Shown here: piece after piece, positions 4,268 to 61,276 of the stretch | Layout of the letters: each line of letters opens with the position of its first letter | Numbering within the stretch: position 1 is the first letter of the stretch | Assembly: GCA_965226485.1 (NCBI GenBank) | Contig: OZ245363.1 | Coordinates: 2,170,817 to 2,234,816, forward strand | Reading direction: 5' to 3' | DNA length: 64,000 nt | From: Spirochaetaceae bacterium | GTDB lineage: Bacteria; Spirochaetota; Spirochaetia; DSM-2461 | Notes under the pieces: model-generated | The model's input: only the letters and a program-made list of their open reading frames with translations | Told to the model about the DNA's origin: nothing | Databases searched by the model: none | Position numbers and translations under genes: made by a program

Positions 4268-4650
4268 GGGGCTGTGTCAGAATGCGCCTTTGGCCCGCAT
4301 GCGGCGTTGGCGAAAAAACCTGAAATGCTCATGTACAACATGTACACTCCGCTTTCAGAACTTTTCGCCGCCTTGCCTGCAGACCAAATCCATCATTCTG
4401 ACCCAGCCCCTGGCCCGCATGCGGCGTTAGCGAAAAAACCTGAAATGCTCATGTACAATATGTACACTCCGCTTTCAGAACTTTTCGCCGCCTTGCCTGC
4501 AGACCAAATCCATCATTCTGACACAGCCCCTGGCCCGCATGCGGCGTTAGCGAAAAAACCTGAAATACTCATGTACAACATGTACACTCCGCTTTCAGAA
4601 CTTTTCGCCGCCTTGCCTGCAGACCAAATCCATCATTCTGACACAGCCCC
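4268..4650. mobile_element. MITE-like element with 16-bp terminal inverted repeats and three tandem 120-bp internal units
   Basis: GGGGCTGTGTCAGAAT ... ATTCTGACACAGCCCC; unit repeats at a 120-bp period; related copies at 13016, 20630, 28858, 44063, 56330. Confidence 0.85.
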
Positions 4651-4695: not shown

Positions 4696-5676
4696 CTACC
4701 ATATTATATAGTTACCACCATACGTGAGCCCGCCTCCAAACCCAACAGTTAGAATTTTCATTCCACGCTTTAGAAGCCCCTTATCATCCATCTCCGCCAA
4801 GGCCAAGGGGATGGATGCCGAAGAAGTATTAGCGAATTTTTCTATGTTTAGATAGTACTTCTCCATAGGTATTTTTGCCCGTTTGGCGGCGGCGGCGATG
4901 ATACGATAGTTTGCCTGATGAGGTACGATATAATCAATATCGTCAGGTCGCAAGTCATTTCGTTCCATCAGATCGCTAACCACTTCAGTATTCACTCTGA
5001 CCGCAAAACTGTATACCTTCTGGCCATCCATTTTTAAATAGCCCTGCTCCTCAAAGGGTATATCCGAATCGTAGGGAGTCGCCGTACCACCGGCAGACAT
5101 GAACAGGTATTCGGCACCGCTACCATCAGTTCTCAGTATACTGTCCTGAATTCCTGAATCGGATTCGACTTCTCCGAGTATCACTGCACCCGCACCATCA
5201 CCAAATAAAACGGCAGTACTGCGATCCTTCCAGTTTACTATTGCCGAAAGCTTCTCGGCACCGATGAGTAAAACGTACTTAGCCGTTTTTCCTAAAACCA
5301 ATCCTCGCCCAACTTCCAAGCCATAGACAAAACCGGTACAGGCCGCCTTCAGATCCAGAGAACCCACCTGTCCGATAGACAAATCTCTCTGCACCAGATT
5401 GGCCGTAGCGGGGAAATCCTTATAGTCCGGTGTAATACTGGAAACAATGATGAAATCAATGTCATCTTTGGCCAATCCTGCATTGACAATGGCGGATTTT
5501 GCCGCCTCGGATGCCATAAACGCAACCGTTTCCCTTTCCGAAGCTATATAACGAGTTCCTATTCCCGTGTGTGAACGTATCCATTCATCAGAGGTATCAA
5601 GGATTTGTGATAACTCATCATTACTCACACATTTTGAGGGGACATAAGAACCAATGGACAGTATTCCAGCAGCCAT
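4696..5676 (-). CDS. fabH: 3-oxoacyl-ACP synthase III
   Basis: DLKAACTGF, LFGDGAGA, VPHQAN, ANTSSAS, GFGGGLT. Confidence 0.97.
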   Translation of the reverse strand: MAAGILSIGSYVPSKCVSNDELSQILDTSDEWIRSHTGIGTRYIASERETVAFMASEAAKSAIVNAGLAKDDIDFIIVSSITPDYKDFPATANLVQRDLSIGQVGSLDLKAACTGFVYGLEVGRGLVLGKTAKYVLLIGAEKLSAIVNWKDRSTAVLFGDGAGAVILGEVESDSGIQDSILRTDGSGAEYLFMSAGGTATPYDSDIPFEEQGYLKMDGQKVYSFAVRVNTEVVSDLMERNDLRPDDIDYIVPHQANYRIIAAAAKRAKIPMEKYYLNIEKFANTSSASIPLALAEMDDKGLLKRGMKILTVGFGGGLTYGGNYIIW

Positions 5677-5703
5677 TTCATCTCCAAACTCTTATTATTG
5701 CAC

Positions 5704-5732
5704 ATTATTCTTTCAAAGTAGCGAACTGTCAA
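5704..5732 (-). promoter_or_regulatory. Sigma70-type promoter of the fab operon
   Basis: Minus strand TTGACA-N17-AATAAT about 28 nt upstream of the fabH ATG. Confidence 0.6.
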
Positions 5733-5915
5733 CATTGATTTAAGGTGCGGAAGGAATGAAGTTCAGATTCCGGCTGGATTGTTACAACGGCATCATCTCG
5801 ATAGCATGACCATTCAATCCGGTTGGACTCAAACCCTTACCGCATTGTACAGAAAAATCACCTGAAATGCGGCTTCCAAACCCGTCAGCCTCCCAATGTG
5901 CCGTAATCCCTTATA

Positions 5916-7143
5916 TAGTGCCCCGAACTCTGTGTTCACCGCTATACCCGAATGTACAACGGGATATAGCGATTAATTTTTACCCCGGGATTGCGCCACT
6001 GACTGAACCAGGTCTTGCGTTCTTCTGTACCCAGCTTGATTTTCCTCAGGAAGGGGCGCTTCATCCAATACTTGCCGATTATTTTGTCCAGGTCTGTGCG
6101 ATTGATTCCTGCCTCTTCTACATGCGTTGTCATGTCGTTCTTTCGGGCATCCTGGACCCGCCGGGCAATCATGCAGTTATGGTAGTGGCGGTAGAGGGTC
6201 ATGCGCATCATCATCGCACTGGGACACCGGGAAAACTGCACCGTCTCTCGCACATGATTGCAGTTATCTTTGCGTACCTGACGGTCAATGTAATTCACAG
6301 GGAATAGAGGATTGTTTTTATTCCTGAACTCATGTGAGGATATACATTCATGGAGAAAGTATTTTTTGAAGTCCTTGATCTTGGCGAAGGCTCGTGTATA
6401 CGATTTGTGTAGGTCTGTCGTCAATGTCTTCCCGGTAATTTTCTTTTCTTTAAGTAGTTGAATAAGTTCGCTAGCTATATTTCTAAACGATTTCTCAATG
6501 GCCTTCGGGTCGGCTTTTTCTATGGATTCTAGTACCATTCTCCGCTTCTTTTGTGCCTGGGTCATTCTTCCTTTGCGCCTAAGATTGGCAAAACCCATGC
6601 TGTAAATGAACTCGGATTCGGAGCCAGCAAAGATGTTGATATGATGGGGAAAGTACTGGGACTCGGAGAAAGATTCCAGCCCATCGGCGGCCATATCTTC
6701 TTGCAGAGGTAAATCAGGGAGCAGTTCGGAATGAATGGCCTGGCAGCATCTTGCCAGCCGTTCGAATCGGTTCTGAACGGTCTCTATTCTGACGTTAATA
6801 GCACGGCCTATATCGCCCAGCCCTGAAGCGGTGACAAGATGCTCGAAGATCTTTGAATAATCGACAACTTTTTTGGCATAGTAATCAATTGAAAAGGTTT
6901 GATCAGAAAAAGTCCTGCGGCAATTCTTACAGCGGTAACGCTGAACTTGGCCGAAGGCCGATGTTGGATGAAAACCATAGCGAATATACCAATTTTCCCC
7001 GGCGGGAGCCTCGAAATTGGAGCAATCGGGATTGGGGCAGTGTGGAAAAGTCATAACATACCTCCTTAGTAAGTTGTTTCCCTACTAAGGTATGACTTGC
7101 GTTTAGAGGCGATTTACTTCAAAAAACAGGCTTTGGGGCACTG
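5916..7143 (-). mobile_element. Insertion sequence (IS1-like, unclassified), ~1.23 kb
   Basis: Imperfect terminal IRs TAGTGCCCCGAA / TTTGGGGCACTG (10/12) enclosing a single ORF. Confidence 0.65.
5942..7054 (-). CDS. Putative transposase: N-terminal Zn ribbon and HTH, then RNase H-like catalytic domain
   Basis: CPNPDC...RYRCKNC Zn ribbon (InsA-like); acidic motifs AADGLESF, LTTDLHKSY, VNYIDRQVRKD; SD AGGAGG. Confidence 0.7.
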   Translation of the reverse strand: MTFPHCPNPDCSNFEAPAGENWYIRYGFHPTSAFGQVQRYRCKNCRRTFSDQTFSIDYYAKKVVDYSKIFEHLVTASGLGDIGRAINVRIETVQNRFERLARCCQAIHSELLPDLPLQEDMAADGLESFSESQYFPHHINIFAGSESEFIYSMGFANLRRKGRMTQAQKKRRMVLESIEKADPKAIEKSFRNIASELIQLLKEKKITGKTLTTDLHKSYTRAFAKIKDFKKYFLHECISSHEFRNKNNPLFPVNYIDRQVRKDNCNHVRETVQFSRCPSAMMMRMTLYRHYHNCMIARRVQDARKNDMTTHVEEAGINRTDLDKIIGKYWMKRPFLRKIKLGTEERKTWFSQWRNPGVKINRYIPLYIRV

Positions 7144-11644: not shown

Positions 11645-11788
11645 TGAGAATATGGCTATCGGAGGGATTTGGATATGTTGATTTTTCAACATCCATTGCC
11701 GACAGAGGGAATGGTTATAGTAGTAATAAAAAGAAAACGCCGGGTTCCGGCGTAATATATCATTTCATTGCAAATAGGAGAAAAAGTG

Positions 11789-12958
11789 ATGAAGAGATTC
11801 TTGATTTTAGCCCTCGTGGTGACAATCGCTGGGCTTGCGTTTGCGGAAGTGGATCCTGCGTTTAGTGGGACATTCTCCACTTATTTCGGTTTATCAGTCG
11901 TGGACATGGATGTTAAGAAAGATGTTTCTGACGCGATGAAGCTGGACCTGAATGCGACTATCGATGAGTGGAACACTGTTTCCGTTACCGTAGAAGTGGC
12001 CGATGCTCTCTACTGGGACGACATCAATGATGACAAGAACATTGCAACGAGTAGGCTTGGCACCGATACAACTAAGCTTGCCGTGGCTGGCGACGAGCTT
12101 GACAACAGGCAGGATTATCTCCGCATGGGAGCTTACACCCTGACGACGGATCTGTTTGGTGCTCTTGGCATTAGCGGGCCAGTTGGCTTGAGCCTAAAAC
12201 TCGGTAAATTCGGGTTTGGTGATTCGGCTTCCGTTGTCAATGTAGCGCCTCTTTCCACCAAATCGGCCGATGGCACTAAAGGGACAGATGATGGCCTGAT
12301 CGGCATTGGGTTTGATTTCAAATTCGTTGACAAGGTGACTCTCAGTACCGTTATTTATCCCGAGAACCTGGGTGCTATCGGTGATGACTCAAACAAGAGA
12401 TTTGAAGGTGGAGTCACCCTCAAGGGTGTCGGTATTGCCGATATGCTCGACTTTGCGGCCTATTTCCTTGCATCGGACCTTGATGCTAGGAAAAAGGAAA
12501 ACAAAAAGTCGGATACAAAAGATGACGGCGGAATGAGTGTGGGTGCCAGTGTGGCACTGGGCTTCGGCGATCACAAGGTGGGTCTTGGCTTTCAATATGA
12601 TTTAGATGATGCACTTGCTCCAAATGGCCCCAGATTGCAACTCGATTACTCTGCAAAATTTGGTATCCTTACGGCAGGCCTCTCATACGGAATCGAAGGT
12701 ATTGAAGCATTTGGCGAAAAAAGCAAGGTGAAAGTATCGCTATTGGCGGATGTATTGGATAATTTAAGTATCTTTGGCGGTATCGAATTAGGCGACTTCG
12801 AAAATTTTGATGCGGCTAACATCAAATACGATGCCGGTATTTCCACAGCTCTTGGTTCATTGTCAATTCTATTTGGCATGACTAATAATATGGACTACAA
12901 GGCACCTGAAGATGACTGGAACGATACAATTTACCTGAAATTCAGCACAGCCTTCTAG
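11789..12958 (+). CDS. Outer-membrane beta-barrel protein, Msp/major outer sheath-like
   Basis: SD AGGAG, signal peptide MKRFLILALVVTIAGLAFA, amphipathic beta strands, C-terminal Phe (YLKFSTAF). Confidence 0.75.
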   Translation: MKRFLILALVVTIAGLAFAEVDPAFSGTFSTYFGLSVVDMDVKKDVSDAMKLDLNATIDEWNTVSVTVEVADALYWDDINDDKNIATSRLGTDTTKLAVAGDELDNRQDYLRMGAYTLTTDLFGALGISGPVGLSLKLGKFGFGDSASVVNVAPLSTKSADGTKGTDDGLIGIGFDFKFVDKVTLSTVIYPENLGAIGDDSNKRFEGGVTLKGVGIADMLDFAAYFLASDLDARKKENKKSDTKDDGGMSVGASVALGFGDHKVGLGFQYDLDDALAPNGPRLQLDYSAKFGILTAGLSYGIEGIEAFGEKSKVKVSLLADVLDNLSIFGGIELGDFENFDAANIKYDAGISTALGSLSILFGMTNNMDYKAPEDDWNDTIYLKFSTAF

Positions 12959-14150: not shown

Positions 14151-14329
14151 TTTTATATTGGGATCTTTTTTCTTGAGTATGACAGTTTGGCAACTCACCC
14201 TCATAAAGAGACTGCGGTGTTATTGTTCGAGCATCTCGTATTTCCGTTGTATCATTCTATTTTATATCAGCTTATTTATATGGTGATTAGCCACCGGGTT
14301 AATAGTACGCCACCGTTGTGAACTCCGTG

Positions 14330-17300
14330 AGAGCTGGCATGGGAGGCACTGAGTTCTGAGTTCTGAGTTTCGCACGGAGGCACGGAGGGCACGGAGGTTT
14401 TTCAAGGCTTTGTCAGCTCCTTTCTTCGTGTCCTTTTTGAACTTTGTGAGATTGAAAATGGCATGGGGTATATAAAAAGTTTCGCACGGAGGCACGGAGT
14501 GCACGGAGGGCACGGAGGTTTTTCAACGCTTTGTTTGCTCCTTTCTTCGTGTTCTTTTTGAACTTTGTGAGATTGAAAATGGCATGGGGTATATAAAAAG
14601 TTTCGCACGGAGGCACGGAGTGCACGGAGGGCACGGAGGTTTTTCAACGCTTTGTTTGCTCCTTTCTTCGTGTTCTTTTTGAACTTTGTGAGATTGAAAA
14701 TGGCATGGGGTATATAAAAAATTTCGCACGGAGGCACAGAGTACACAGAGGTTTTTCAATGATTTGTCTGATTCTCTCTCCATGTTCTTTCCGTTTTCTT
14801 TATGAACTCCGTGAGATCTGAAAATGGCATGGGAGGTACAGAGAATTTCGCACGGAGGCACAGAGTACACAGAGGTTTTTTAAAGATTTGTCTGATCTCC
14901 TCTTCGTGTCCTTTGCGATCTCCGAGAGAGGCAGAATTGTGCACAGAGGTTTTTCAACGCTTTTTCTGCTCCCCCTCCGTGTCCTCTGTGATCTCCGTGA
15001 GATCTGAAAACGGCGTGGGAGGTATAAAGAGTTTCGCACAGAGGCACAGAGGGCTCAGAGGTTTTTAAATCTTTGCCTGCCCCCTCTCCTTGGCCTTTGT
15101 GAACTCCGTGAGAGGCATAGTTTCGAACAGAGGTTTTTCAACGCTTTTTCTGCTCCCCCTCCGTGTCCTCTGTGAACTTTGTGAGATCTGAAAACGGCGT
15201 GGGAGGTACAAAGTGTTTCGCACGGAGGCACAGAGTACACAGAGGTTTTTAAAGCTTTGGCTGCCCCCCCTCCGTGTCCTTTGTGATCTCCGTGAGAAGC
15301 ATAGTTTCGAACAGAGGTTTTTCAACGCTTTTTCTGCCCCCCTCTCCTTGGCCTTTGTGGACTCCGTGAGAGGCATAGTTTCGAACAGAGGTTTTTCAAC
15401 GCTTTTTCTGCTCCCCCTCCGTGTCCTCTGTGATCTCCGTGAGAGCTATAACGGCGTGGGAGGTACAAAGAGTTTCGCACAGAGGCACGGAGGGCTCAGA
15501 GGTTTTTAAAGCTTTGGCTACTCCCCTCTCCTTGGCCTTTGTGATCTCCGTGAGAGCTATAACGGCGTGGGAGGTATAAAAAGTTTCGCACAGAGGCACA
15601 GAGGTTTTTAAATCTTTGCCTGCCCCCTCTCCTTGGCCTTTGTGGACTCCGTGAGAGGCAGAGTTGCGCACAGAGGTTTTTCAACGCTTTTTCTGCCCCC
15701 CTCCGTGTCCTCTGTGAACTTTGTGAGATCTGAAAACGGCGTGGGAGGTACAAAGTGTTTCGCACGGAGGCACAGAGTACACAGAGGTTTTTTAAAGATT
15801 TGTCTGATCTCCTCTTCGTGTCCTTTGCGATCTCCGAGAGAGGCAGAATTGTGCACAGAGGTTTTTCAAAGCTTGGTCTGCCCCCCCTCCGTGTCCTCTG
15901 TGAACTTTGTGAGATCTGAAAATGGCATGGGAGGTACAAAGTGTTTCGCACAGAGGCTCAGAGGGCTCAGAGGTTTTTAAATCTTTGCCTGCCCCCTCTC
16001 CTTGGCCTTTGTGGACTCCGTGAGAGGCAGAGTTGCGCACGGAGGTTTTTCAAAGATTTGTCAGCTCCTTTCTTCGTGTCCTTTTTGAACTCCGTGAGAT
16101 CTAAAACGGCGTGGGAGGTACAAAGAGTTTCGCACAGAGGCACGGAGGGCACGGAGGTTTTTCAAAGATTTGTCAGCTCCTTTCTTCGTGTCCTTTTTGA
16201 ACTTTGTGAGATTGAAAATGGCATGGGGTATATAAAAAGTTTCGCACGGAGGCACGGAGGGCACGGAGGGCACGGAGGTTTTTCAACGCTTTGTCTGCTC
16301 CTTTCTTTGTGTTCTTTTTGAACTTTGTGAGATTGAAAATGGCTTGGGATGTATAAAAAGTTTCGCACGGAGGCACGGAGGGCACGGAGGTTTTTCAAAG
16401 ATTTGTCTGCTCCCCCTCCGTGTCCTCTGTGAACTCCGTGAGATCTGAAAACGGCGTGGGAGGTATAAAGAGTTTCGCACAGAGGCACAGAGGGCTCAGA
16501 GGTTTTTAAATCTTTGCCTGCCCCCTCTCCTTTGCCTTTGTGATCTCCGAGAGAGGCAGAATTGTGCACAGAGGTTTTTCAACGCTTTTTCTGCCCCCCT
16601 CCGTGTCCTCTGTGAACTCCGTGAGATCTAAAACGGCGTGGGAGGTACAAAGAGTTTCGCACAGAGGCACAGAGGGCTCAGAGGTTTTTAAATCTTTGCC
16701 TGCCCCCTCTCCTTGGCCTTTGTGAACTCCGTGAGAGGCATAGTTTCGAGCAGGGTTTTTTCAACGCTTTTTCTGCTCCCCCTCCGTGTCCTCTGTGAAC
16801 TTTGTGAGATCTGAAAACGGCGTGGGAGGTACAAAGTGTTTCGCACGGAGGCACAGAGTACACAGAGGTTTTTTAAAGATTTGTCTGATCTCCTCTTCGT
16901 GTCCTTTGCGATCTCCGAGAGAGGCAGAATTGCGCACAGAGGTTTTTCAAAGCTTGGTCTGCTCCCCTCCGTGTCCTCTGTGATCTCCGTGAGATCTGAA
17001 AACGGCGTGGGAGGTATAAAGAGTTTCGCACAGAGGCACAGAGGGCTCAGAGGTTTTTAAATCTTTGCCTGCCCCCTCTCCTTGGCCTTTGTGAACTCCG
17101 TGAGAGGCATAGTTTCGAGCAGGGTTTTTTTAACGCTTTTTCTGCTCCCCCTCCGTGTCCTCTGTGAACTTTGTGAGATCTGAAAACGGCGTGGGAGGTA
17201 CAAAGTGTTTCGCACGGAGGCACAGAGTACACAGAGGTTTTTTAAAGATTTGTCTGATCTCCTCTTCGTGTCCTTTGCGATCTCCGAGAGAGGCAGAATT

Positions 17301-18665
17301 GTGCACAGAGGTTTTTCAAAGCTTGGTCTGCTCCCCTCCGTGTCCTCTGTGATCTCCGTGAGATCTGAAAATGGCATGGGAGGTACAAAGTGTTTCGCAC
17401 AGAGGCACAAAGGGCTCAGAGGTTTTTAAATCTTTGCTTGCCCCCTCTCCTTTGCCTTTGTGATCTCCGAGAGAGGCAGAATTGTGCACAGAGGTTTTTC
17501 AACGCTTTTTCTGCTCCCCCTCCGTGTCCTCTGTGAACTCCGTGAGATCTAAAACGGTATGGGAGGTACAAAGTGTTTCGCACAGAGGCTCAGAGGGCAC
17601 AGAGGTTTTTAAAGCTTTGGCTGCCCCCTCCGTGTCCTTTGTGATCTCCGTGAGAAGCATAGTTTCGAACAGAGGTTTTTCAACGCTTTTTCTGCTCCCC
17701 CTCCGTGTCCTCTGTGAACTCCGTGAGATCTGAAAATGGCATGGGAGGTACAGAGAGTTTCGCACGGAGGCACAGAGTACACAGAGGTTTTTTAAAGATT
17801 TGTCTGATCTCCTCTTCGTGGCCTTTGCGATCTCCGAGAGAGGCAGAATTGTGCACAGAGGTTTTTCAACGCTTTTTCTGCTCCCCCTCCGTGTCCTCTG
17901 TGAACTCCGTGAGATCTAAAACGGCTTGGGATGTATAAAAAGTTTCGCACGGAGGCACAGAGTACACAGAGGTTTTTCAATGATTTGTCTGCTTCTCTCT
18001 CCATGTTCTTTCCGTTTTCTTTGTGAACTCCGTGAGATCTGAAAATGGCATGGGAGGTACAGAGAATTTCGCACGGAGGCACAGAGTACACAGAGGTTTT
18101 TTAAAGATTTGTCTGATCTCCTCTTCGTGTCCTTTGCGATCTCCGAGAGAGGCAGAATTGTGCACAGAGGTTTTTATATCTTTGCCTGCCCCCCCTCCGT
18201 GTCCTTTGTGATCTCCGTGAGATCTGAAAACGGCGTGGGAGGTATAAAGAGTTTCGCACAGAGGCACAGAGGGCTCAGAGGTTTTTAAAGCTTTGGCTGC
18301 CCCCTCCGTGTCCTTTGTGATCTCCGTGAGAAGCATAGTTTCGAACAGAGGTTTTTCAACGCTTTTTCTGCTCCCCCTCCGTGTCCTCTGTGATCTCCGT
18401 GAGATCTGAAAATGGCATGGGAGGTACAAAGTGTTTCGCACAGAGGCACAGAGGGCTCAGAGGTTTTTAAATCTTTGCCTGCCCCCTCTCCTTTGCCTTT
18501 GTGATCTCCGAGAGAGGCAGAATTGTGCACAGAGGTTTTTCAACGCTTTTTCTGCTCCCCCTCCGTGTCCTCTGTGATCTCCGTGAGAGCTATAACGGCG
18601 TGGGAGGTACAAAGAATTTCGCACGGAGGCACGGAGTGCACGGAGGGTTTTCAAAGCTTGGTTGA
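14330..18665. repeat. Array A: mosaic tandem array of ~45 units (~70 or ~110-120 bp) built from shuffled modules
   Basis: About 45 GAGGTTTTT anchors counted by hand; recurring CTCCGTGTCCTCTGTG / CACAGAGGCACAGAG imperfect inverted pairs. Confidence 0.95.
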
Positions 18666-18943
18666 AGAATAACTCAGCACTGAACATTCATCTATAGTGC
18701 CAGCTCTGCACTATGAGTCCAGCAAGTCATCCAAAGAGCGCAGTTGCCCCCCATCCCCTCTGGATCGTTTTTGTGCTACAATTCAAGGAGGCAGGCCAAC
18801 TCCTCGTGAGTCGGCTTTTTTCTATTTTTGTACGTCCTTTCCTGCACTATTCGATCATCCTGAGTCAAGATATTTTTCTCTTGCCTTGAATGTGGGTATT
18901 ACCTTCTGTGTCCCATGGGACTTTTTACCTTCTGTGCACCTTT

Positions 18944-18975
18944 TATAGTGCCTCGAAGATTTTGGGTGGCTCAAT
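18944..18975 (+). mobile_element. Solo IS-end-like motif (near-identical copy at 61171-61202)
   Basis: TATAGTGCC(T/C)CGAAGATTT..GGTGG.TCAAT shared with 61171 and with the IS end at 5914-5927. Confidence 0.5.
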
Positions 18976-35106: not shown

Positions 35107-35331
35107 GGGCACGCCCTGAAACCCATGCCCCGAAGCGTAATGCATCTTACGCCGGGCACGCCCAGAAATGCATAACCCGAAGCGTGATGCATCTCACGCC
35201 GGGCACGCCCAGTAATGCATCCCCCGATGCGAAATGAATCCCACGCCGGGCACGCCCTGAAACGCATCCCCCGAAGCGGAATGCATCTTACGCCGGGCAT
35301 GCCCAGAAACCCATCCCCCGAAGCGAAATGC
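35107..35331. repeat. Array B1: ~5 units of the 47-bp repeat
   Basis: Unit CGGGCACGCCCAGAAACGCATGCCCCGAAGCGGAATGCATCCCCCGC with variants. Confidence 0.9.
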
Positions 35332-35931
35332 TGTAATCTCGCAAAATATCCTAACCAATCTCCCCATGAATATCTCACACTCAGTTAACTAATTTTTCAC
35401 AACAGATAATCTAATTCTCAATCTCTCCGAACATAAAAAAAGGAGCAGGGCCCACGCAAATGCACACCTACTCCAATCTCAATCCCTCCCCAAAGGGAGG
35501 AACAATCTTGATACTTATTTGTCGGATAGATTTAGAAGAACTTAAAGACTCTGGAAAGGAATTTCCCTGGATCAACCCAGATAGCTGTCCTTGCTGTGGC
35601 GGATGTCGGCTCTGGGGCCATGGATTTGTCCTGAGATATTTCCATGGCTACACCGCAGGGTTATGGCTGAAACGGTACCGTTGTCCCGACTGCCATACTG
35701 TTCATACCTTACGTCCTGAAAAATATTCACTAGGTTTTCAGTATCCCTGGAAATGTCCAGGGTAATCACAATTCCCCATGGATAAGCCAGCCAGGGTAAT
35801 TAAGATTCCCCATACGATACAGCTGAGGGTAATCAAGATTCCCCATAAATCGGCCTCTAGGGTAATCACAATTCCCCACTCCCTTCCGTAGATCATTTAC
35901 AATACTCCTGCAACAAAACGCAGGAGTACAT

Positions 35932-37491
35932 ATGGGATACAGAAGGATGAATATTATCGATTTAAAATGCATTTACAGAAGACTACAGTCGGATCAAAGC
36001 ATAAAGACTATCAGCGAATCCGAAGGTTATGACCGAAAAACAATCAGGCATTATCGAGATGCCATGAAATCCTCCGGTCTGCTTGAATCACCTGATCCAT
36101 CGGAAGAGATCTTGGCGGAAAAGCTCTTTGAACTGCTTCCGAACAACGAACGAAGCAGCCCGATACACGATGAATTCCATCAGCACAAAGATGAGATCAT
36201 CCGGCTCACCACAAGGGAACAGGAGCCTATGAAGCTGAAGAGTGCGTTCATCGTCATCAAGCAAAAGTATGGTCTGGGGGGCAGTTACGAGAGCTTCAAA
36301 GTCTTCTCCCGCAAACATCATTTGACGGTTCCCGGGAAAAAGCAGTTCCCGCGACTGGAGTTGCCGCCGGGAGAGGAGACACAGATAGATTATGGTCGAG
36401 TCGGTTTGCATGAAGAGCCGGGAACAGGTAAGAACCGTGTCATCAATGCCTTCGCAGCCAAGCTTTCCTCCTCCAGGCTACCATTCATAGAGTTTACCTA
36501 TTTTCAGAACCAGGAATCCTTTGTCGGGAGCAATGACAATATGGTTCGTTTTTTTGGCGGAGTCACCGAATACCTGACCATTGACAACCTCAAGTCCGGT
36601 GTGATTAGAGCCGACATATACGATCCTCAGATCAACAAGGCATATGCGGAATGGGCGGAGCATCACGGTACTTTTATCAATCCCTGTATCAAGGCACACG
36701 CCAAAGGGAAGGCCAAGGTCGAAAGGATGATTCCTGAAGCCCGAGAGCTTTTTCGACGATTGAAAGAGCTTCATCCCTCCGCAACTCTCAAAGAGCTCAA
36801 TGAAGAGGCAAAGAAGTGGTGTCTGAATGAGTACGGACAGAAAAAGCATGGGACCACTGGCATCCCGCCTTATGAGGCTTTTATCGATGAAGAGAAGCCT
36901 AAGCTAAAACCTATAAATCCTATTCGCTTTGAGATCCCGGTCTGGAAATCTGCAAACGTCCATATGGATCAGTTTGTCAGTTTTGAGAAAAAGCGCTTTT
37001 CCATGCCCTTGTCCTATCGCAGAAAGATCGTGCACTGCCGACGGGCTGGCAGTCTGGTGAAGATCTATGATGAGAATTATCTCTTTATCAGGCAATACGT
37101 TACTACATCCAGGAAAGTGTACTGTACCGACGGTGATTTCCCGCCGGATCAACGTGCGATGATCAAAGGCGATTACCCGCAGTTTCTGATCGGACGGGCA
37201 GCGGCCTACGGATCTGGATCGAAACAACTTGTGGAACAGATCCTGCGGTCTCATGCATTTATAAACGCCCGTATCGCCAAGGGAATGATCACACTCTTCG
37301 AGCAGTACAAGGACCTGCCGTTGCTGCAAGATGTGTGTAGCAAGGCGGCGACCTTCAAGGTGCGCCAACCGAAGCACTTGAAGATCATGCTGGAAGATGA
37401 AAAGAAACAGAAACACCTGGTATTTGAAGTCCCTCGCTCAACGGCGGGTGAAGCCATGGTCAGAGATATTCGAGAATACATGAGCAATTAA
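35932..37491 (+). CDS. istA: IS21 transposase IstA
   Basis: GEETQIDYG, TIDNLKSGV, KGKAKVER DDE motifs. Confidence 0.95.
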   Translation: MGYRRMNIIDLKCIYRRLQSDQSIKTISESEGYDRKTIRHYRDAMKSSGLLESPDPSEEILAEKLFELLPNNERSSPIHDEFHQHKDEIIRLTTREQEPMKLKSAFIVIKQKYGLGGSYESFKVFSRKHHLTVPGKKQFPRLELPPGEETQIDYGRVGLHEEPGTGKNRVINAFAAKLSSSRLPFIEFTYFQNQESFVGSNDNMVRFFGGVTEYLTIDNLKSGVIRADIYDPQINKAYAEWAEHHGTFINPCIKAHAKGKAKVERMIPEARELFRRLKELHPSATLKELNEEAKKWCLNEYGQKKHGTTGIPPYEAFIDEEKPKLKPINPIRFEIPVWKSANVHMDQFVSFEKKRFSMPLSYRRKIVHCRRAGSLVKIYDENYLFIRQYVTTSRKVYCTDGDFPPDQRAMIKGDYPQFLIGRAAAYGSGSKQLVEQILRSHAFINARIAKGMITLFEQYKDLPLLQDVCSKAATFKVRQPKHLKIMLEDEKKQKHLVFEVPRSTAGEAMVRDIREYMSN

Positions 37492-37507
37492 CAAGAAGGA
37501 GAAAACT

Positions 37508-38275
37508 GTGAAAGAAATGCAAACACTTGAGGCCAATCTTCGTCGGTTGAGAATGCCGGGGATACTGGAGAACCTCGATCTACGGCTCCGGGAAGCTGAA
37601 GATGGCGGACTCGGTTATCTGGATTTTTTGATTCTGCTGATTCAAGATGAGGTTGTAAATCGCGATTCCAACATCCTGAGCAAACGTCTGAAAGTCGGAA
37701 GCTTGAGTCCCAGAATGACTTTTGAGAACTTTAACTACCGGTTCAATATGGCAACCATTCCGCAGCAGACCATCCGGGATCTGGCGACTTGCCGCTTTAT
37801 CAGGGACCATAGAAGTCTGGTTCTGTGCGGCCCTCCCGGAATTGGTAAGACCCACATAGCACAGGCCATCGGTCATGAGGTGTGCCGCCGGGGAGGAGAT
37901 GCCCTATTCGTCAAAACCCAGAAACTTTTAGAGTGTCTGACAGACGACTCCTACCCGAGGAGAGTGGCCCGGTTATGGAAGCAGATCAAGACAATGGACT
38001 TGCTGGTTCTCGATGATTTTGGTTTTCGACGTTATGACTCGAAAGAATCCGAGTTGCTTTATGCGCTGGCAGACGAACGTTTGGGAAGTGGTTCGACCAT
38101 CATCACATCCAACCGTCCGCCGCAAGACTGGTACGGTGTCTTTCCCGATCCGGTCATCGGCGGGGCGGTGCTGGATAGACTGGTTTCCGGTGCTATTAAG
38201 ATCATTGTCGAGGAAGCTAAGTCTTACAGGATGCATGGAGTATTCGGTGAGGGGACAGAGGGAAAAGGCTCTTGA
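37508..38275 (+). CDS. istB: IS21 helper ATPase IstB
   Basis: GPPGIGKTH, LLVLDDFG, ITSNR, AVLDRL. Confidence 0.95.
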   Translation: MKEMQTLEANLRRLRMPGILENLDLRLREAEDGGLGYLDFLILLIQDEVVNRDSNILSKRLKVGSLSPRMTFENFNYRFNMATIPQQTIRDLATCRFIRDHRSLVLCGPPGIGKTHIAQAIGHEVCRRGGDALFVKTQKLLECLTDDSYPRRVARLWKQIKTMDLLVLDDFGFRRYDSKESELLYALADERLGSGSTIITSNRPPQDWYGVFPDPVIGGAVLDRLVSGAIKIIVEEAKSYRMHGVFGEGTEGKGS

Positions 38276-39486: not shown

Positions 39487-40452
39487 CCGGGTGCACCCAA
39501 AAACGCATGCCCCGAAGCGAAATGCCTCCCCCGCCGGGCACGCCCAGAAACGCATCCCCCGAAGCGGAATGCATCTTACGCCGGGCATGCCCAGAAACCC
39601 ATCCCCCGAAGCAAAATGCATCCCCCGGCGGGCACGCCCAGAAACGCATGCCCCGAAGCGAAAGGCCTCCCCCGCCGGGCACGCCCAGAAACGCATGCCT
39701 CGAAGTGAAATGCATCCCCCGGCGGGCACGCCCAGAAACGCATGCTTCGAAGCGGAATGCATCTCCCGCCGGGTGCGCCCAGAAATGCATGCTCCGAAGC
39801 GGAATGCATCTTACGCCGGGCATGCCCAGAAACGCATGCCCCGAAGCGAAATGCCTCCCCTGCCGGGCACGCCCTGAAACGCATGCCCCGATGCGAAATG
39901 AATCTCACGCCGGGCACGCCCTGAAACGCATCCCCCGAAGCGAGATGCATCTCACGCCGGGCACGCCCTGAAATGCATGCCCCGAAGCGAAAGGCCTCCC
40001 CCGCCGGGTGCACCCAAAAACGCATGCCCCGAAGCGGAATGCATCTTACGCCGGGCATGCCCTGAAACGCATGCCCCGAAGCGAAATGCCTCCCCCGCCG
40101 AGCACGCCCAGAAACCCATCCCCCGAAGCAAAATGCATCCCCCGCCGGGCACGCCCAGAAACGCATGCTTCGAAGCGAGATGCATCTCCCGGAGGGCACG
40201 CCCAGTAATGCATGATCCGAAGCGTGATGCATCTCACGCCGGGCACGCCCAGTAATGCATGATCCGAAGCGTGATGCATCTCACGCCGGGCACGCCCAGT
40301 AATGCATCCCCCGATGCGAAATGAATCCCACGCCGGGCATGCCCAGAAACCCATCCCCCGAAGTGAAATGCATCCCCCGGCGGGCGCGCCCAGAAATGCA
40401 TGCTTCGAAGCGAGATGTATCCCCCGCCGGGCACGCCCTGATACCCATGCCC
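39487..40452. repeat. Array B2: ~20 units of the 47-bp repeat
   Basis: Same unit as B1 and B3. Confidence 0.95.
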
Positions 40453-55396: not shown

Positions 55397-55493
55397 GAAA
55401 CATAGTCGATTCTTATTAATAAGACTTCATTTTCATAGGTATATGAGGGGTGAGTTTCTAGTGCTGAAATAGGCTTATTTATTCATTGTTTTT

Positions 55494-55562
55494 AAACGCT
55501 GAGATCGCTGAGATCGAAGAGTAATTTCTTTTCTCTGCGTAACTCTGTGTTCTCAGCGGTTT
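55494..55562. repeat. REP-like hairpin
   Basis: AAACGCTGAGA ... CTCTGTGTTCTCAGCGGTTT. Confidence 0.5.
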
Positions 55563-55762
55563 CAAATTCCTTACACCACCACCTCGTCAGTATTTTATAT
55601 GTTAAAGTAAATTGTGTCCTATGTCGGCAATACTTTGCTTAAGTGCAGTGAAGATTCTACAGTATACTCACTTGCCCGAATCAGAAATAGCGGCATAGCC
55701 TATTAAAGAAATAATTCTGGTGTCTCATTTTTGGTATCATCGGCGAAGAATGTCCTGAAAAG

Positions 55763-58690: not shown

Positions 58691-61102
58691 GTGAAATGCC
58701 TCCCCTGGCGGGCACGCCCAGAAACGCATGCTTCGAAGCGGAATGTATTTCCCGGCGGGCACGCCCAGAAACGCATGCCCCGAAGTGGAATGCATCCCCC
58801 GCCGGGCACGCCCAGAAACGTATGCTTCGAAGCGGAATGCCTCCCCCGGCGGGCACGCCCAGAAACGCATGCTTCGAAGCGGAATGCCTCTTACGCCGGG
58901 CACGCCCAGAAACGCATGCTTCGAAGCGGAATGCCTCTCACGCCGGGTGCGCCCAAAAACGCATGCCCCGAAGCGTGATGCCTTCCCCGGCGGGCACGCC
59001 CAGAAACGCATGCTTCGAAGCGGAATGTATTTCCCGCCGGGCACGCCCTGAAACGCATGCTCCGAAGCGGAATGTATCTCCCGGCGGGCACGCCCAGAAA
59101 CGTATGCTTCGAAGCGGAATGCATCTTACGCCGGGTGCACCCAAAAACGCATGCCCCGAAGCGTGATGCCTTCCCCGGCGGGCACGCCCAGAAACGCATG
59201 CTTCGAAGCGGAATGTATTTCCCGCCGGGCACGCCCTGAAACGCATGCTCCGAAGCGGAATGTATCTCCCGGCGGGCACGCCCAGAAACGTATGCTTCGA
59301 AGCGGAATGCATCTTACGCCGGGTGCACCCAAAAACGCATGCCCCGAAGCGTGATGCCTTCCCCGGCGGGCACGCCCAGAAACGCATCCCCCGAAGCGGA
59401 ATGCATCCCCCGGCGGGCACGCCCAAAAACGCATGCCCCGAAGCGAAATGCATCCCCCGGCGGGCACGCCCAGAAACGCATCCCCCGAAGCGTGATGCCT
59501 CCCCCGCCGGGCACGCCCAAAAACGCATGCCCCGAAGCGGAATGCATCCCCCGGCGGGCACGCCCAAAAACGCATGCCCCGAAGCGTGATGCATCCCCCG
59601 GCGGGCACGCCCAGAAACGCATGCCCCGAAGCGAAATGCCTCCCCCGCCGGGCACGCCCAGAAACGCATGCTTCGAAGCGGAATGCCTCCCCCGCCGGGC
59701 ACGCCCAAAAACGCATGCCCCGAAGCGTGATGCATCCCCCGGCGGGCACGCCCAGAAACGCATGCTCCGAAGCGGAATGCTTCCCCCGGCGGGCGCGCCC
59801 AGAAACGCATGCCCCGAAGCGTGATGCCTCCCACACCGGGCACGCCCAGAAACGCATCCCCCGAAGCGTGATGCCTTCCCCGGCGGGCACGCCCATAAAC
59901 GCATCCCCCGAAGCGGAATGCCTCTCCCGCCGGGCACGCCCAGAAACGTATGCTTCGAAGCGGAATGCCTCCCCCGCCGGGCACGCCCAGAAACGCATGC
60001 TTCGAAGCGGAATGCCTCCCCCGCCGGGCACGCCCAGAAACGCATCCACCGAAGCGTAATGCATCTTACGCCGGGCACGCCCAGAAATGCATGCTTCGAA
60101 GCGGAATGTATCCCCCGGCGGGCGCGCCCAGAAACGCATGCCCCGAAGCGAAATGCATCCCCTGGCGGGCACGCCCAGAAACGCATGCCCCGAAGTGAAA
60201 TGCATCCCCCGGCGGGCACGCCCAGAAACGCATGCCCCGAAGCGAAATGCATCCCCCGGCGGGCACGCCCAGAAACGCATCCCCCGAAGCGTGATGCCTC
60301 CCACACCGGGCACGCCCAGAAACGCATCCCCCGAAGCGTGATGCCTTCCCCGGCGGGCACGCCCAGAAACGCATGCTTCGAAGCGGAATGTATTTCCCGC
60401 CGGGCACGCCCTGAAACGCATGCTCCGAAGCGGAATGCCTCTCCCGCCGGGTGCACCCAAAAACGCATGCCCCGAAGCGGAATGCCTCCCCCGCCGGGCA
60501 CGCCCAGAAACGCATGCTTCGAAGCGGAATGCATCCCCCGGCGGGCACGCCCAGAAACGCATCCCCCGAAGCGGAATGCATCCCCCGGCGGGCACGCCCA
60601 GAAACGCATCCCCCGAAGCGAAATGCATCCCCCGGCGGGCACGCCCAGAAACGCATGCCTCGAAGCGTGATGCATCTCCCGGCGGGCACGCCCAGAAACG
60701 CATGCTTCGAAGCGGAATGTCTCTTACGCCGGGCACGCCCAGAAACGCATGCTTCGAAGCGGAATGCCTCTTACGCCGGGCACGCCCAGAAACGCATGCC
60801 CCGAAGCGTGATGCATCCCCCGCCGGGCACGCCCAGAAACGTATGCTTCGAAGCGGAATGTATCTCCCGCCGGGCACGCCCAGAAACGCATGCCCCGAAG
60901 CGAAATGCTTCCCCCGCCGGGCACGCCCAGAAACGCATGTCCCGAAGCGGAATGCCTTCCCCGGCGGGCACGCCCAGAAACGCATGCCCCGAAGCGTGAT
61001 GCCTCTCACGCCGGGCACGCCCAGAAACGCATGCTCCGAAGCGTGATGCATCCCCCGGCGGGCACGCCCAGAAACGCATGCTCCGAAGCGTGATGCATCC
61101 CC
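58691..61102. repeat. Array B3: ~51 units of the 47-bp repeat
   Basis: Continuous 47-bp periodicity over ~2.4 kb. Confidence 0.95.
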
Positions 61103-61276
61103 TCCAAGTGCGATTTCACCCAGATACCTCAAGATTACCCATCATAGATAATCTGTTTCCTGTATTAGGCTATAGTGCCCCGAAGATTTGGGGTGGTTCA
61201 ATAGATGGATGCATGTGTTTGCTCTCTACCACTAAGCTTGAGGACACTATAAGAGGTATAAGGAATCTTCTGCAAA

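Follow-up and report, generated by a model that had tools for sequence, protein, structure and literature searches.

Repetitive extragenic palindromic (REP) sequences may be repeated in tandem along with their linker DNA, so that mosaics built from a small number of motif types arise (Di Nocera 2013, PMC3733652; Quentin 2018, PMC6006769). Here, we describe array A, a 4.3-kb noncoding tandem array in the genome of a Spirochaetaceae bacterium (GenBank assembly GCA_965226485.1, contig OZ245363.1), located at approximately 14316 to 18662 of the 64,000-nucleotide stretch that was analyzed (contig positions 2,170,817 to 2,234,816 of the forward strand; hereafter, the window). Array A consists of 44 units arranged head to tail in a single orientation on the + strand, and it differs by whole pairs of units between two near-identical strains. 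By the score of a covariance model built from other phyla, its hairpin belongs to a cross-phylum family, defined in this analysis and characterized by the heptad CACRGAG. We consider it moderately probable that unequal recombination, conversion, or slippage turned a palindromic element resembling REPs and bacterial interspersed mosaic elements (BIMEs) into a higher-order satellite and that the array is tolerated rather than used. The resemblance to REPs, REP doublets forming hairpins (REPINs), and BIMEs is one of behavior, and strict membership fails on the motif at the foot of the stem. To our knowledge, kilobase-sized higher-order noncoding satellites have rarely been documented in bacteria, largely since short-read assemblies break there.

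An initial annotation of this stretch described about 45 units led by the anchor GAGGTTTTT, and this was borne out. The anchor occurs in 42 exact copies on the + strand between positions 14394 and 18532, with one copy elsewhere in the window and approximately 0.95 expected by chance, and two anchor variants (GGGTTTTTT, at 16753 and 17122) bring the array to its total of 44. The 15-mer CACRGAGGCACRGAG is present in 27 copies, all on the + strand and all within array A (0.3 expected). Using Tandem Repeats Finder, periods of 112 to 124, 183 to 184, and 369 bp were identified, and the array has an AT skew of -0.17 to -0.23, the + strand being T rich. The head modules quoted in the initial annotation were found in array A, as was the complementarity between its imperfect stem modules CTCCGTGTCCTCTGTG and CACAGAGGCACAGAG. 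Aligned units have four parts: a GAGG+T5 junction, a variable head of approximately 18 nt, a C-rich arm, and a tail. The C-rich arm is composed of three heptads (CTCYGTG-N-CCTYTGTG-NN-CTYYGTG-AGA). The tail of the long units (102 to 124 nt) comprises a 28- to 29-nt spacer (e.g., TCTGAAAAYGGCRTGGGAGGTAYAAAGWG) and a G-rich arm, TTTCG-CACRGAG-G-CACRGAG-NN-CWCRGAG, and that of the short units (70 to 74 nt) comprises a 7-nt spacer and a single heptad. The best-conserved segment of the unit is GAGG+T5, which lies directly 3' of the G-rich arm in 42 of the 44 units.

The array opens with a leading partial unit (14316 to 14393, + strand) made up of a truncated C-rich arm (GTGAACTCCGTGAGA), a variant spacer containing TTCTGAG twice, and the first G-rich arm. 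Four long units of 112 to 124 bp follow (14394 to 14871, + strand); the first three are of a T-rich variant type in which the C-rich arm has decayed to CTTCGTG or CTTTGTG and the G-rich arm holds up to four CACGGAG blocks, and the fourth carries a 12-nt head insertion. The main body (14872 to 18531, + strand) is formed mostly of alternating long and short units. In the last unit (18532 to 18662, + strand), the array stops past a G-rich arm, within the next head (GGTTTTCAAAGCTTGGT). The order of units across the array is LLLLsLsLssLLsLsLsLLLLsLsLsLsLsLsLsLsLLsLsLsL (L, long; s, short), from which the main body was recognized as a higher-order repeat of approximately 184 bp, one long plus one short unit, with a super-periodicity of 369 bp. 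Heads and tails had been described as recombining freely, but they were found to be tightly linked. A long tail accompanies 24 of the 25 heads of the CAA/TAAC type, and a short tail accompanies 17 of the 19 heads of the AAA/TAAAGA/ATAT type, such that the head type predicts the tail type in 41 of the 44 units (Fisher p = 4e-9). Mosaic unit variants do exist; thus, some exchange between units occurs. A BIME-like alternating inverted structure, in which the head would be an inverted copy of the spacer, was considered and rejected, as alignment scores were at the level of shuffled sequences.

A conserved repeat at regular spacing, together with a weak match to CRISPR-DR43 on the - strand (21 bits against a threshold of 35), could point to a degenerate CRISPR array, a type III toxin-antitoxin array of the toxI kind, or a repetitive protein gene, but this is extremely unlikely. 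Every segment of the units recurs, leaving no unique spacers, which upholds the earlier dismissal of CRISPR; no cas gene was found among the open reading frames (ORFs) scanned beside array A or elsewhere in the window, and no toxN-family gene was found near the array. Stops occur in all frames, the longest ORF in the array is 154 amino acids (aa), in agreement with the earlier statement that no long ORF spans it, and none of the six longest ORFs matches a Pfam family. In JGI metagenomes, the array-specific spacer pattern gave 62 single matches, none of them array-like, which is consistent with chance.

Tandem repeats are prone to error in assembly, but a short repeat inflated or misjoined by the assembler is a very improbable source of array A. 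The same array, with the same boundaries and flanks, is present on an independent 3.52-Mb circular contig, L001 (ERZ25069865, ctg6097_24x_c), the name format of which suggests a long-read assembler, and the lipoprotein adjoining the array is encoded identically on it. The two assemblies come from different samples and share, in addition to the boundaries, an identical leading partial unit and 24 identical first units. Array words were found in at least six public runs, and DNA contigs of four public runs carry unit variants at a depth many times that of the flank. The length polymorphism raised in the initial annotation is evident between the two strains, with 44 units in the window and 54 in L001. 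The extra blocks in L001 measure 553, 184, and 185 bp, corresponding to three, one, and one long-plus-short pairs, accompanied by a few converted units, and the flanks are identical outside a few divergent patches. Such whole-pair insertions and deletions in near-identical strains indicate that the array changes by higher-order units faster than point mutations accumulate. Array A therefore combines the features of a higher-order satellite, namely, head-to-tail units, a multiunit period, and between-strain indels of whole periods.

All array A copies are co-oriented with both flanking genes, for which the + strand is the sense strand. The downstream gene, 900 bp away, encodes a TAXI-TRAP binding protein, and lipoprotein and outer membrane protein (OMP) genes lie on the other side. 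Homologs of the lipoprotein were identified in three other genomes at 83, 57, and 55% identity, all within a block of tryptophanyl-tRNA synthetase, response-regulator, OMP, and lipoprotein genes, and no array, hairpin, or tandem repeat was found at that block in any of the three. Several Pfam families at these loci bear the names of Treponema pallidum proteins, suggestive of a Treponema-like spirochete. Array A is species specific and located at a synteny break.

Other differences were seen around the array and between the strains. A 120-bp tandem repeat (4291 to 4650) has three copies in the window and one fewer in L001, a second copy number polymorphism of this strain pair. Approximately 59 differences between the window and L001 at 5500 to 7000 are concentrated on an ORF of 370 aa (5942 to 7054, - strand) with a weak match to the N terminus of IS1/ISL3 transposases and no Pfam family, and the next 6 kb is identical; the cluster suggests a recombination patch or a fast-evolving gene. 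At the left junction (14182 to 14351), extra DNA contigs were found in runs X1/X2, with position 14237 C>T at a depth of 60 of 79, and a loose end at 14351 connects the array start with another upstream sequence, TACGCCCCAAAACTCAGGGGCAAAAGAAAA. Similar arrays may exist elsewhere in the genome or in coresident strains.

The full unit boundary folds as a hairpin in which TTTCG and three CACRGAG heptads in 9-nt phase are followed by a loop and then the complement. The best-preserved full hairpin (16361 to 16443, + strand) consists of TTTCG-CACGGAG-G-CACGGAG-GG-CACGGAG-G, a 25-nt loop, and CCTCCGTG-T-CCTCTGTG-AA-CTCCGTG-AGA. Its minimum free energy is -48.2 kcal/mol on the + strand and -41.9 kcal/mol on the - strand, and it scores 52.6 bits with R1, the covariance model built from other phyla that is described below. 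The top match to this model (15216 to 15299, + strand) scores 57 bits (E = 3e-15) over the full model length. The topology is that typical of the family and spans the unit boundary: a G-rich arm, the head as loop, and a C-rich arm, closed by TTTCG...GAGA. Across-head hairpins have a 5' TTTCG with a G-rich heptad arm, a loop, and a C-rich arm with (C/A)GA(A/G)A at the 3' end. The stem that the initial annotation placed within long units is complementary and folds, but the family-typical hairpin crosses the unit boundary and not the tail spacer. The across-spacer stem and the across-head hairpin fold about equally well, and the former has a reversed arm order that is never seen in solitary family copies. 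Neighboring arms pair no better than random arm combinations; thus, no pairwise selection is visible, and arm coevolution was uninformative as an arbiter between the two structures.

On the + strand, each hairpin folds more favorably than on the - strand, by 3 to 4 kcal/mol, as most mismatches are G.U compatible, and R1 also scores the + strand higher. The commonest change among array units is C>T, and the folding bias fits either a constraint on sense-strand RNA or C-to-T decay on the + strand. Methyl-CpG decay was rejected as the source of the R/Y polymorphism, since just 12 of the 49 transitions fall at CpG and transversions occur almost as often.

The relatives of this hairpin were sought in 185,579 species genomes (596 Gb), which were scanned for the 16-mer TTTCGCACRGAGGCAC. 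At least 130 matches in at least 109 stretches were obtained, where by our own arithmetic several hundred chance matches are expected in 596 Gb. Among the 130 matches listed, 86 continue with RRAG (approximately two expected), and 49 have a complementary arm within 170 nt. The hairpin hosts among the matches listed are Planctomycetota, Verrucomicrobiota, Lentisphaerota, Bacteroidota, Leptospira, and an acidobacterial metagenome-assembled genome (MAG). These hairpins have near-perfect stems of 25 to 35 bp with the arrangement TTTCG-(CACRGAG, 9-nt phase)x3, loop, complement, and CGAAA; they are intergenic, lie among genes of every orientation, and occur in several copies per 8-kb locus. The stems reach past the searched core with compensatory pair changes (for example, 17 C-G and 16 A-U pairs at position 23). 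A BLAST search of plasmids added hairpins in Bacteroides finegoldii and in a Gemmatirosa megaplasmid, as well as a pure (GCACGGAGG)n minisatellite in Burkholderia (locus L178).

Model R1 was built from 17 of the hairpins from other phyla only (Planctomycetota, Verrucomicrobiota, Bacteroidota, and Leptospira), with no array A sequence. It matches 27 array A hairpins over model positions 1 to 87, at 27 to 57 bits (E = 5e-6 to 3e-15), and the unseen Bacteroides finegoldii and Gemmatirosa hairpins at 50 to 52 bits. A solitary, diverged member of the family was also identified in the window (55490 to 55566; 26.3 bits, E = 1.4e-5), which is intergenic, carries the heptads CGCTGAG and CGAAGAG in 9-nt phase, and is the only hairpin copy outside array A in the 64 kb. 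A full-text literature search with the core strings and variants returned no relevant paper, and the REP tables of Quentin 2018 do not include the family.

Tandem arrays of the hairpin were found in other genomes as well. A Pirellulales array (218 bp x 8.2) lies downstream of a response-regulator gene, and a Thermoguttaceae MAG has an array with a 138-bp unit that reaches the contig end. In Victivallaceae, the G-rich heptad block is unpaired and constitutes one module of large mosaic repeat clusters. Each 218-bp unit in Pirellulales STL-PLA33 (L100, 1953 to 3758) also holds a GTAG-containing palindrome (CCCGTAGCATCGCTG...), and thus a classical REP-type motif and the new hairpin were amplified together. 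The Burkholderia stagnalis locus (L178, approximately 1940 to 2140) is a pure run of the GCACGGAGG nonamer flanked by related 8- to 9-mer runs (GACGCGGAG and ACACGCAG), showing that the hairpin arm motif exists also as a plain minisatellite. The Bacteroides finegoldii hairpin (L177, 1995 to 2068) lies between gmd and fcl, and GDP-mannose dehydratase, with 3 of 111 ORFs, is also the Pfam family encountered most often next to hairpins in other genomes; placement next to gmd is possibly a conserved hairpin position.

As for the REP-type hairpin satellite that the initial annotation proposed, R1 does recognize the array hairpins, but the REP label applies by analogy alone. The GT[AG]G/CGTC tag at the stem foot is absent from the array A family, the foot being TTTCG paired with CGAAA or GAGA, and the REP-associated tyrosine transposase (RAYT, TnpA-REP) for which the initial annotation advised a search was not encountered among the ORFs scanned. 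No Y1_Tnp match was found among 36 ORFs, a subset of those in the window, scanned against Pfam, and no transposase or RAYT among 111 ORFs located within 700 bp of hairpins in other phyla, which represent diverse housekeeping genes. The window does hold an IS21 element and the weak transposase-like ORF. The 20-mer core was absent from 2.9 million viral contigs, and thus there is no sign of a phage vehicle.

The building block of array A is a long imperfect palindrome with a 5' arm of TTTCG and one to four CACRGAG heptads every 9 nt, a 25- to 30-nt loop (the "anchor + head" of the initial annotation), and a complementary 3' arm ending in GTGAGA. One hairpin with neighboring DNA would have been duplicated in tandem in this lineage, the short unit would be a deletion derivative that retained one heptad in the G-rich arm, and the long-plus-short pair would then have become the unit of further amplification. 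Misaligned units would undergo unequal homologous recombination, gene conversion, or replication slippage, through which the array would grow, shrink, and be homogenized; we infer this mechanism from the pattern of differences between strains, and the hairpins probably favor slippage. No sign was found that the array itself serves the cell; located at a synteny breakpoint, it is most likely selfish or neutral DNA that is tolerated.

Several observations weigh against this explanation. For a genome of 3.5 Mb, an insert of 4.3 kb carries a cost, yet at least two strains have kept it, with 24 units identical between them, and the GAGGTTTTT junction is almost invariant while the adjoining head sequence varies. 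The conservation of a 20-nt core across phyla implies a sequence-specific partner, so that the element, though perhaps not the array, likely has a function. The better folding of the + strand would also fit selection on + strand RNA. Finally, three metatranscriptome assemblies hold array A fragments of 68 to 127 nt at a word depth of 3 to 5, with the adjacent lipoprotein gene at depth 0 and the OMP gene at depth 20.

These fragments, the better folding and higher R1 scores of the + strand, the co-orientation of all units with both flanking genes, and the conserved GAGG+T5 after the G-rich arm would all suit + strand transcription of the array and a role as RNA, with a long hairpin followed by U5-6 from each unit. 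It could then separate the lipoprotein/OMP genes from the TAXI-TRAP operon as a repeated terminator or insulator, or act as a multihairpin RNA that titrates an RNA-binding protein or RNase (a sponge). We nevertheless consider a role as RNA unlikely. An intrinsic terminator has a G+C-rich stem, a loop of 3 to 8 nt, and a U-tract immediately 3'; the units possess the U-tract, but their loops are 24 to 29 nt, and the terminator scan reported no + strand unit. Counts from the sigma-70 promoter and terminator scan of array A were at or below shuffled expectation. The depth of 3 to 5 in RNA contigs is a sum over 20 to 40 collapsed copies, equating to approximately 0.1 to 0.2 per copy against 20 for the OMP gene, and DNA carry-over is a possible source of the fragments. 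Raw noncoding RNA sequencing yielded approximately 11 array A reads, in both orientations, from runs of the same sample label in which the organism is almost absent, and the evidence for transcription of the array is weak. No Rfam family reached its gathering score in the window or in 17 loci from other phyla, and nothing credible was found at E <= 10 (the best subthreshold match scored 24 bits against a threshold of 90); scans for tRNA and tmRNA also found none. In addition, the T-run is absent from the family elsewhere, other arrays included, related species lack the array, and the G.U bias is equally well explained by + strand C-to-T decay.

Two features near the array were noted in connection with transcription. 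The gene most highly represented of the stretch in four metatranscriptome assemblies (depth of approximately 6 to 29) lies at 11768 to 12958 and encodes a porin-like protein of 396 aa that has a signal peptide, ends in ...STAF, and belongs to no Pfam or NCBIfam family. By eye, a terminator-like hairpin (GCCAACTC-CTCGT-GAGTCGGC and then T6) was seen at 18795 to 18821 on the + strand, 130 nt past array A; it has one A.C mismatch, is absent from the terminator-scan list, and could be where a + strand transcript over the array has its 3' end.

The array could alternatively act at the DNA level, as a platform on which a binding site, CACRGAG, is repeated many times in phase, at 9-bp intervals and in inverted blocks. 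Gyrase at BIME-2 and SopB at sopC are the analogies, and the candidate binders would be a nucleoid protein, a topoisomerase, an HUH nuclease, or a partition-type protein. The phased heptads and the 20-nt core are conserved across at least six phyla, which speaks for a sequence-specific partner; the heptad block is likewise present, unpaired, in the Victivallaceae mosaic clusters and as the Burkholderia minisatellite, and arrays recur independently in Planctomycetota. Such a platform is, however, improbable: no recurrent DNA-binding or transposase family or other candidate protein was found among the scanned window ORFs or the 111 hairpin-adjacent ORFs elsewhere, near-identical strains are 10 units apart in copy number, and related species do without the array. 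We regard it as possible, if doubtful, that array A is the most extreme known case of an undescribed cross-phylum class of palindromes, defined by 9-nt-phased CACRGAG heptads (GGAGG in one arm and CCTCC in the other), with a dedicated conserved sequence-specific partner and an intrinsic tendency to form kilobase tandem arrays. The partner might be an HUH nuclease, a nucleic acid-binding protein, or the anti-Shine-Dalgarno end of the ribosome, and array formation, seen independently in Spirochaetota and Planctomycetota, would be an active property of the element and not passive slippage.

Array A is not the only repeat in the window. Three further noncoding arrays with 47-bp units were identified at 58695 to 61102, 39496 to 40452, and 35107 to 35331 (51, 20, and 4.8 copies, respectively; GC content of up to 0.66), and together with array A and the 120-bp repeat, tandem-repeat DNA amounts to approximately 8 kb of the window, which is unusual for a bacterium. 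A 32-nt motif on the + strand, TATAGTGCCYCGAAGATTTKGGGTGGYTCAAT, is found at 18944 to 18975, 280 nt past array A, and at 61171 to 61202, 70 nt past the largest 47-bp array; the window has no third copy of this motif, which is the sole similarity between the flanks of array A and those of the 47-bp arrays. The IS21 element (35932 to 38275, with istA, istB, and 33-bp terminal repeats at 35756 to 35878) lies between two of the 47-bp arrays, as if inserted into one, and a low-GC island (0.33 to 0.40) is located just upstream of it, at 29 to 35 kb.

Array A represents a bacterial satellite caught changing between near-identical strains. Its family shares a 20- to 30-nt core among Planctomycetota, Verrucomicrobiota, Lentisphaerota, Bacteroidota (including human-gut Bacteroides), Gemmatimonadota, and Spirochaetota. 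Ordinary REPs are lineage specific; a core so widely conserved points to a common partner or vehicle. The presence of the hairpin in a genetically tractable Bacteroides, at gmd/fcl, makes the question of what binds or moves it directly testable.

Like the REP, BIME-2, and REPIN sequences of Escherichia coli and Pseudomonas, members of the array A family are extragenic imperfect palindromes that are scattered in many copies through some genomes, occur between genes irrespective of gene orientation, and vary in copy number between strains. Their stems of 25 to 35 bp are built from 9-nt-phased heptads, whereas REPs are simple palindromes of 20 to 40 bp; they are without the GTAG/GTGG or CGTC foot of REPs, have no RAYT beside any copy examined, and share a 20-nt core across several phyla, whereas REPs are normally lineage specific. 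E. coli BIME-2 clusters are not known to contain more than about a dozen REPs, and array A, with 44 units over 4.3 kb, is far larger. Short heptamer or nonamer tandem motifs in noncoding DNA are also seen in the short tandemly repeated repetitive (STRR) heptamers of cyanobacteria and in bacterial minisatellites, but in array A the nonamers form two complementary hairpin arms, and the hairpin plus linker is the tandem unit. The arrays of toxI and CRISPR likewise consist of tandem short structured repeats in noncoding DNA, but array A has no adjacent toxN or cas gene, no unique spacers, a unit of 70 to 124 nt, and 44 copies. With eukaryotic alpha satellite, array A shares a head-to-tail higher-order repeat (long plus short, 184 bp; 369 bp), and as in higher-order satellites, older diverged units lie at one edge, homogenized units lie inside, and whole higher-order units change between strains; unlike alpha satellite, it is bacterial, just 4.3 kb, built from a hairpin element, and without a centromere role. 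Tandem reiteration of REPs with linker DNA was already known (PMC3733652); what is new in array A and its family is the scale of the array, its higher-order organization, the heptad-built stem, and the conservation of the core across phyla.

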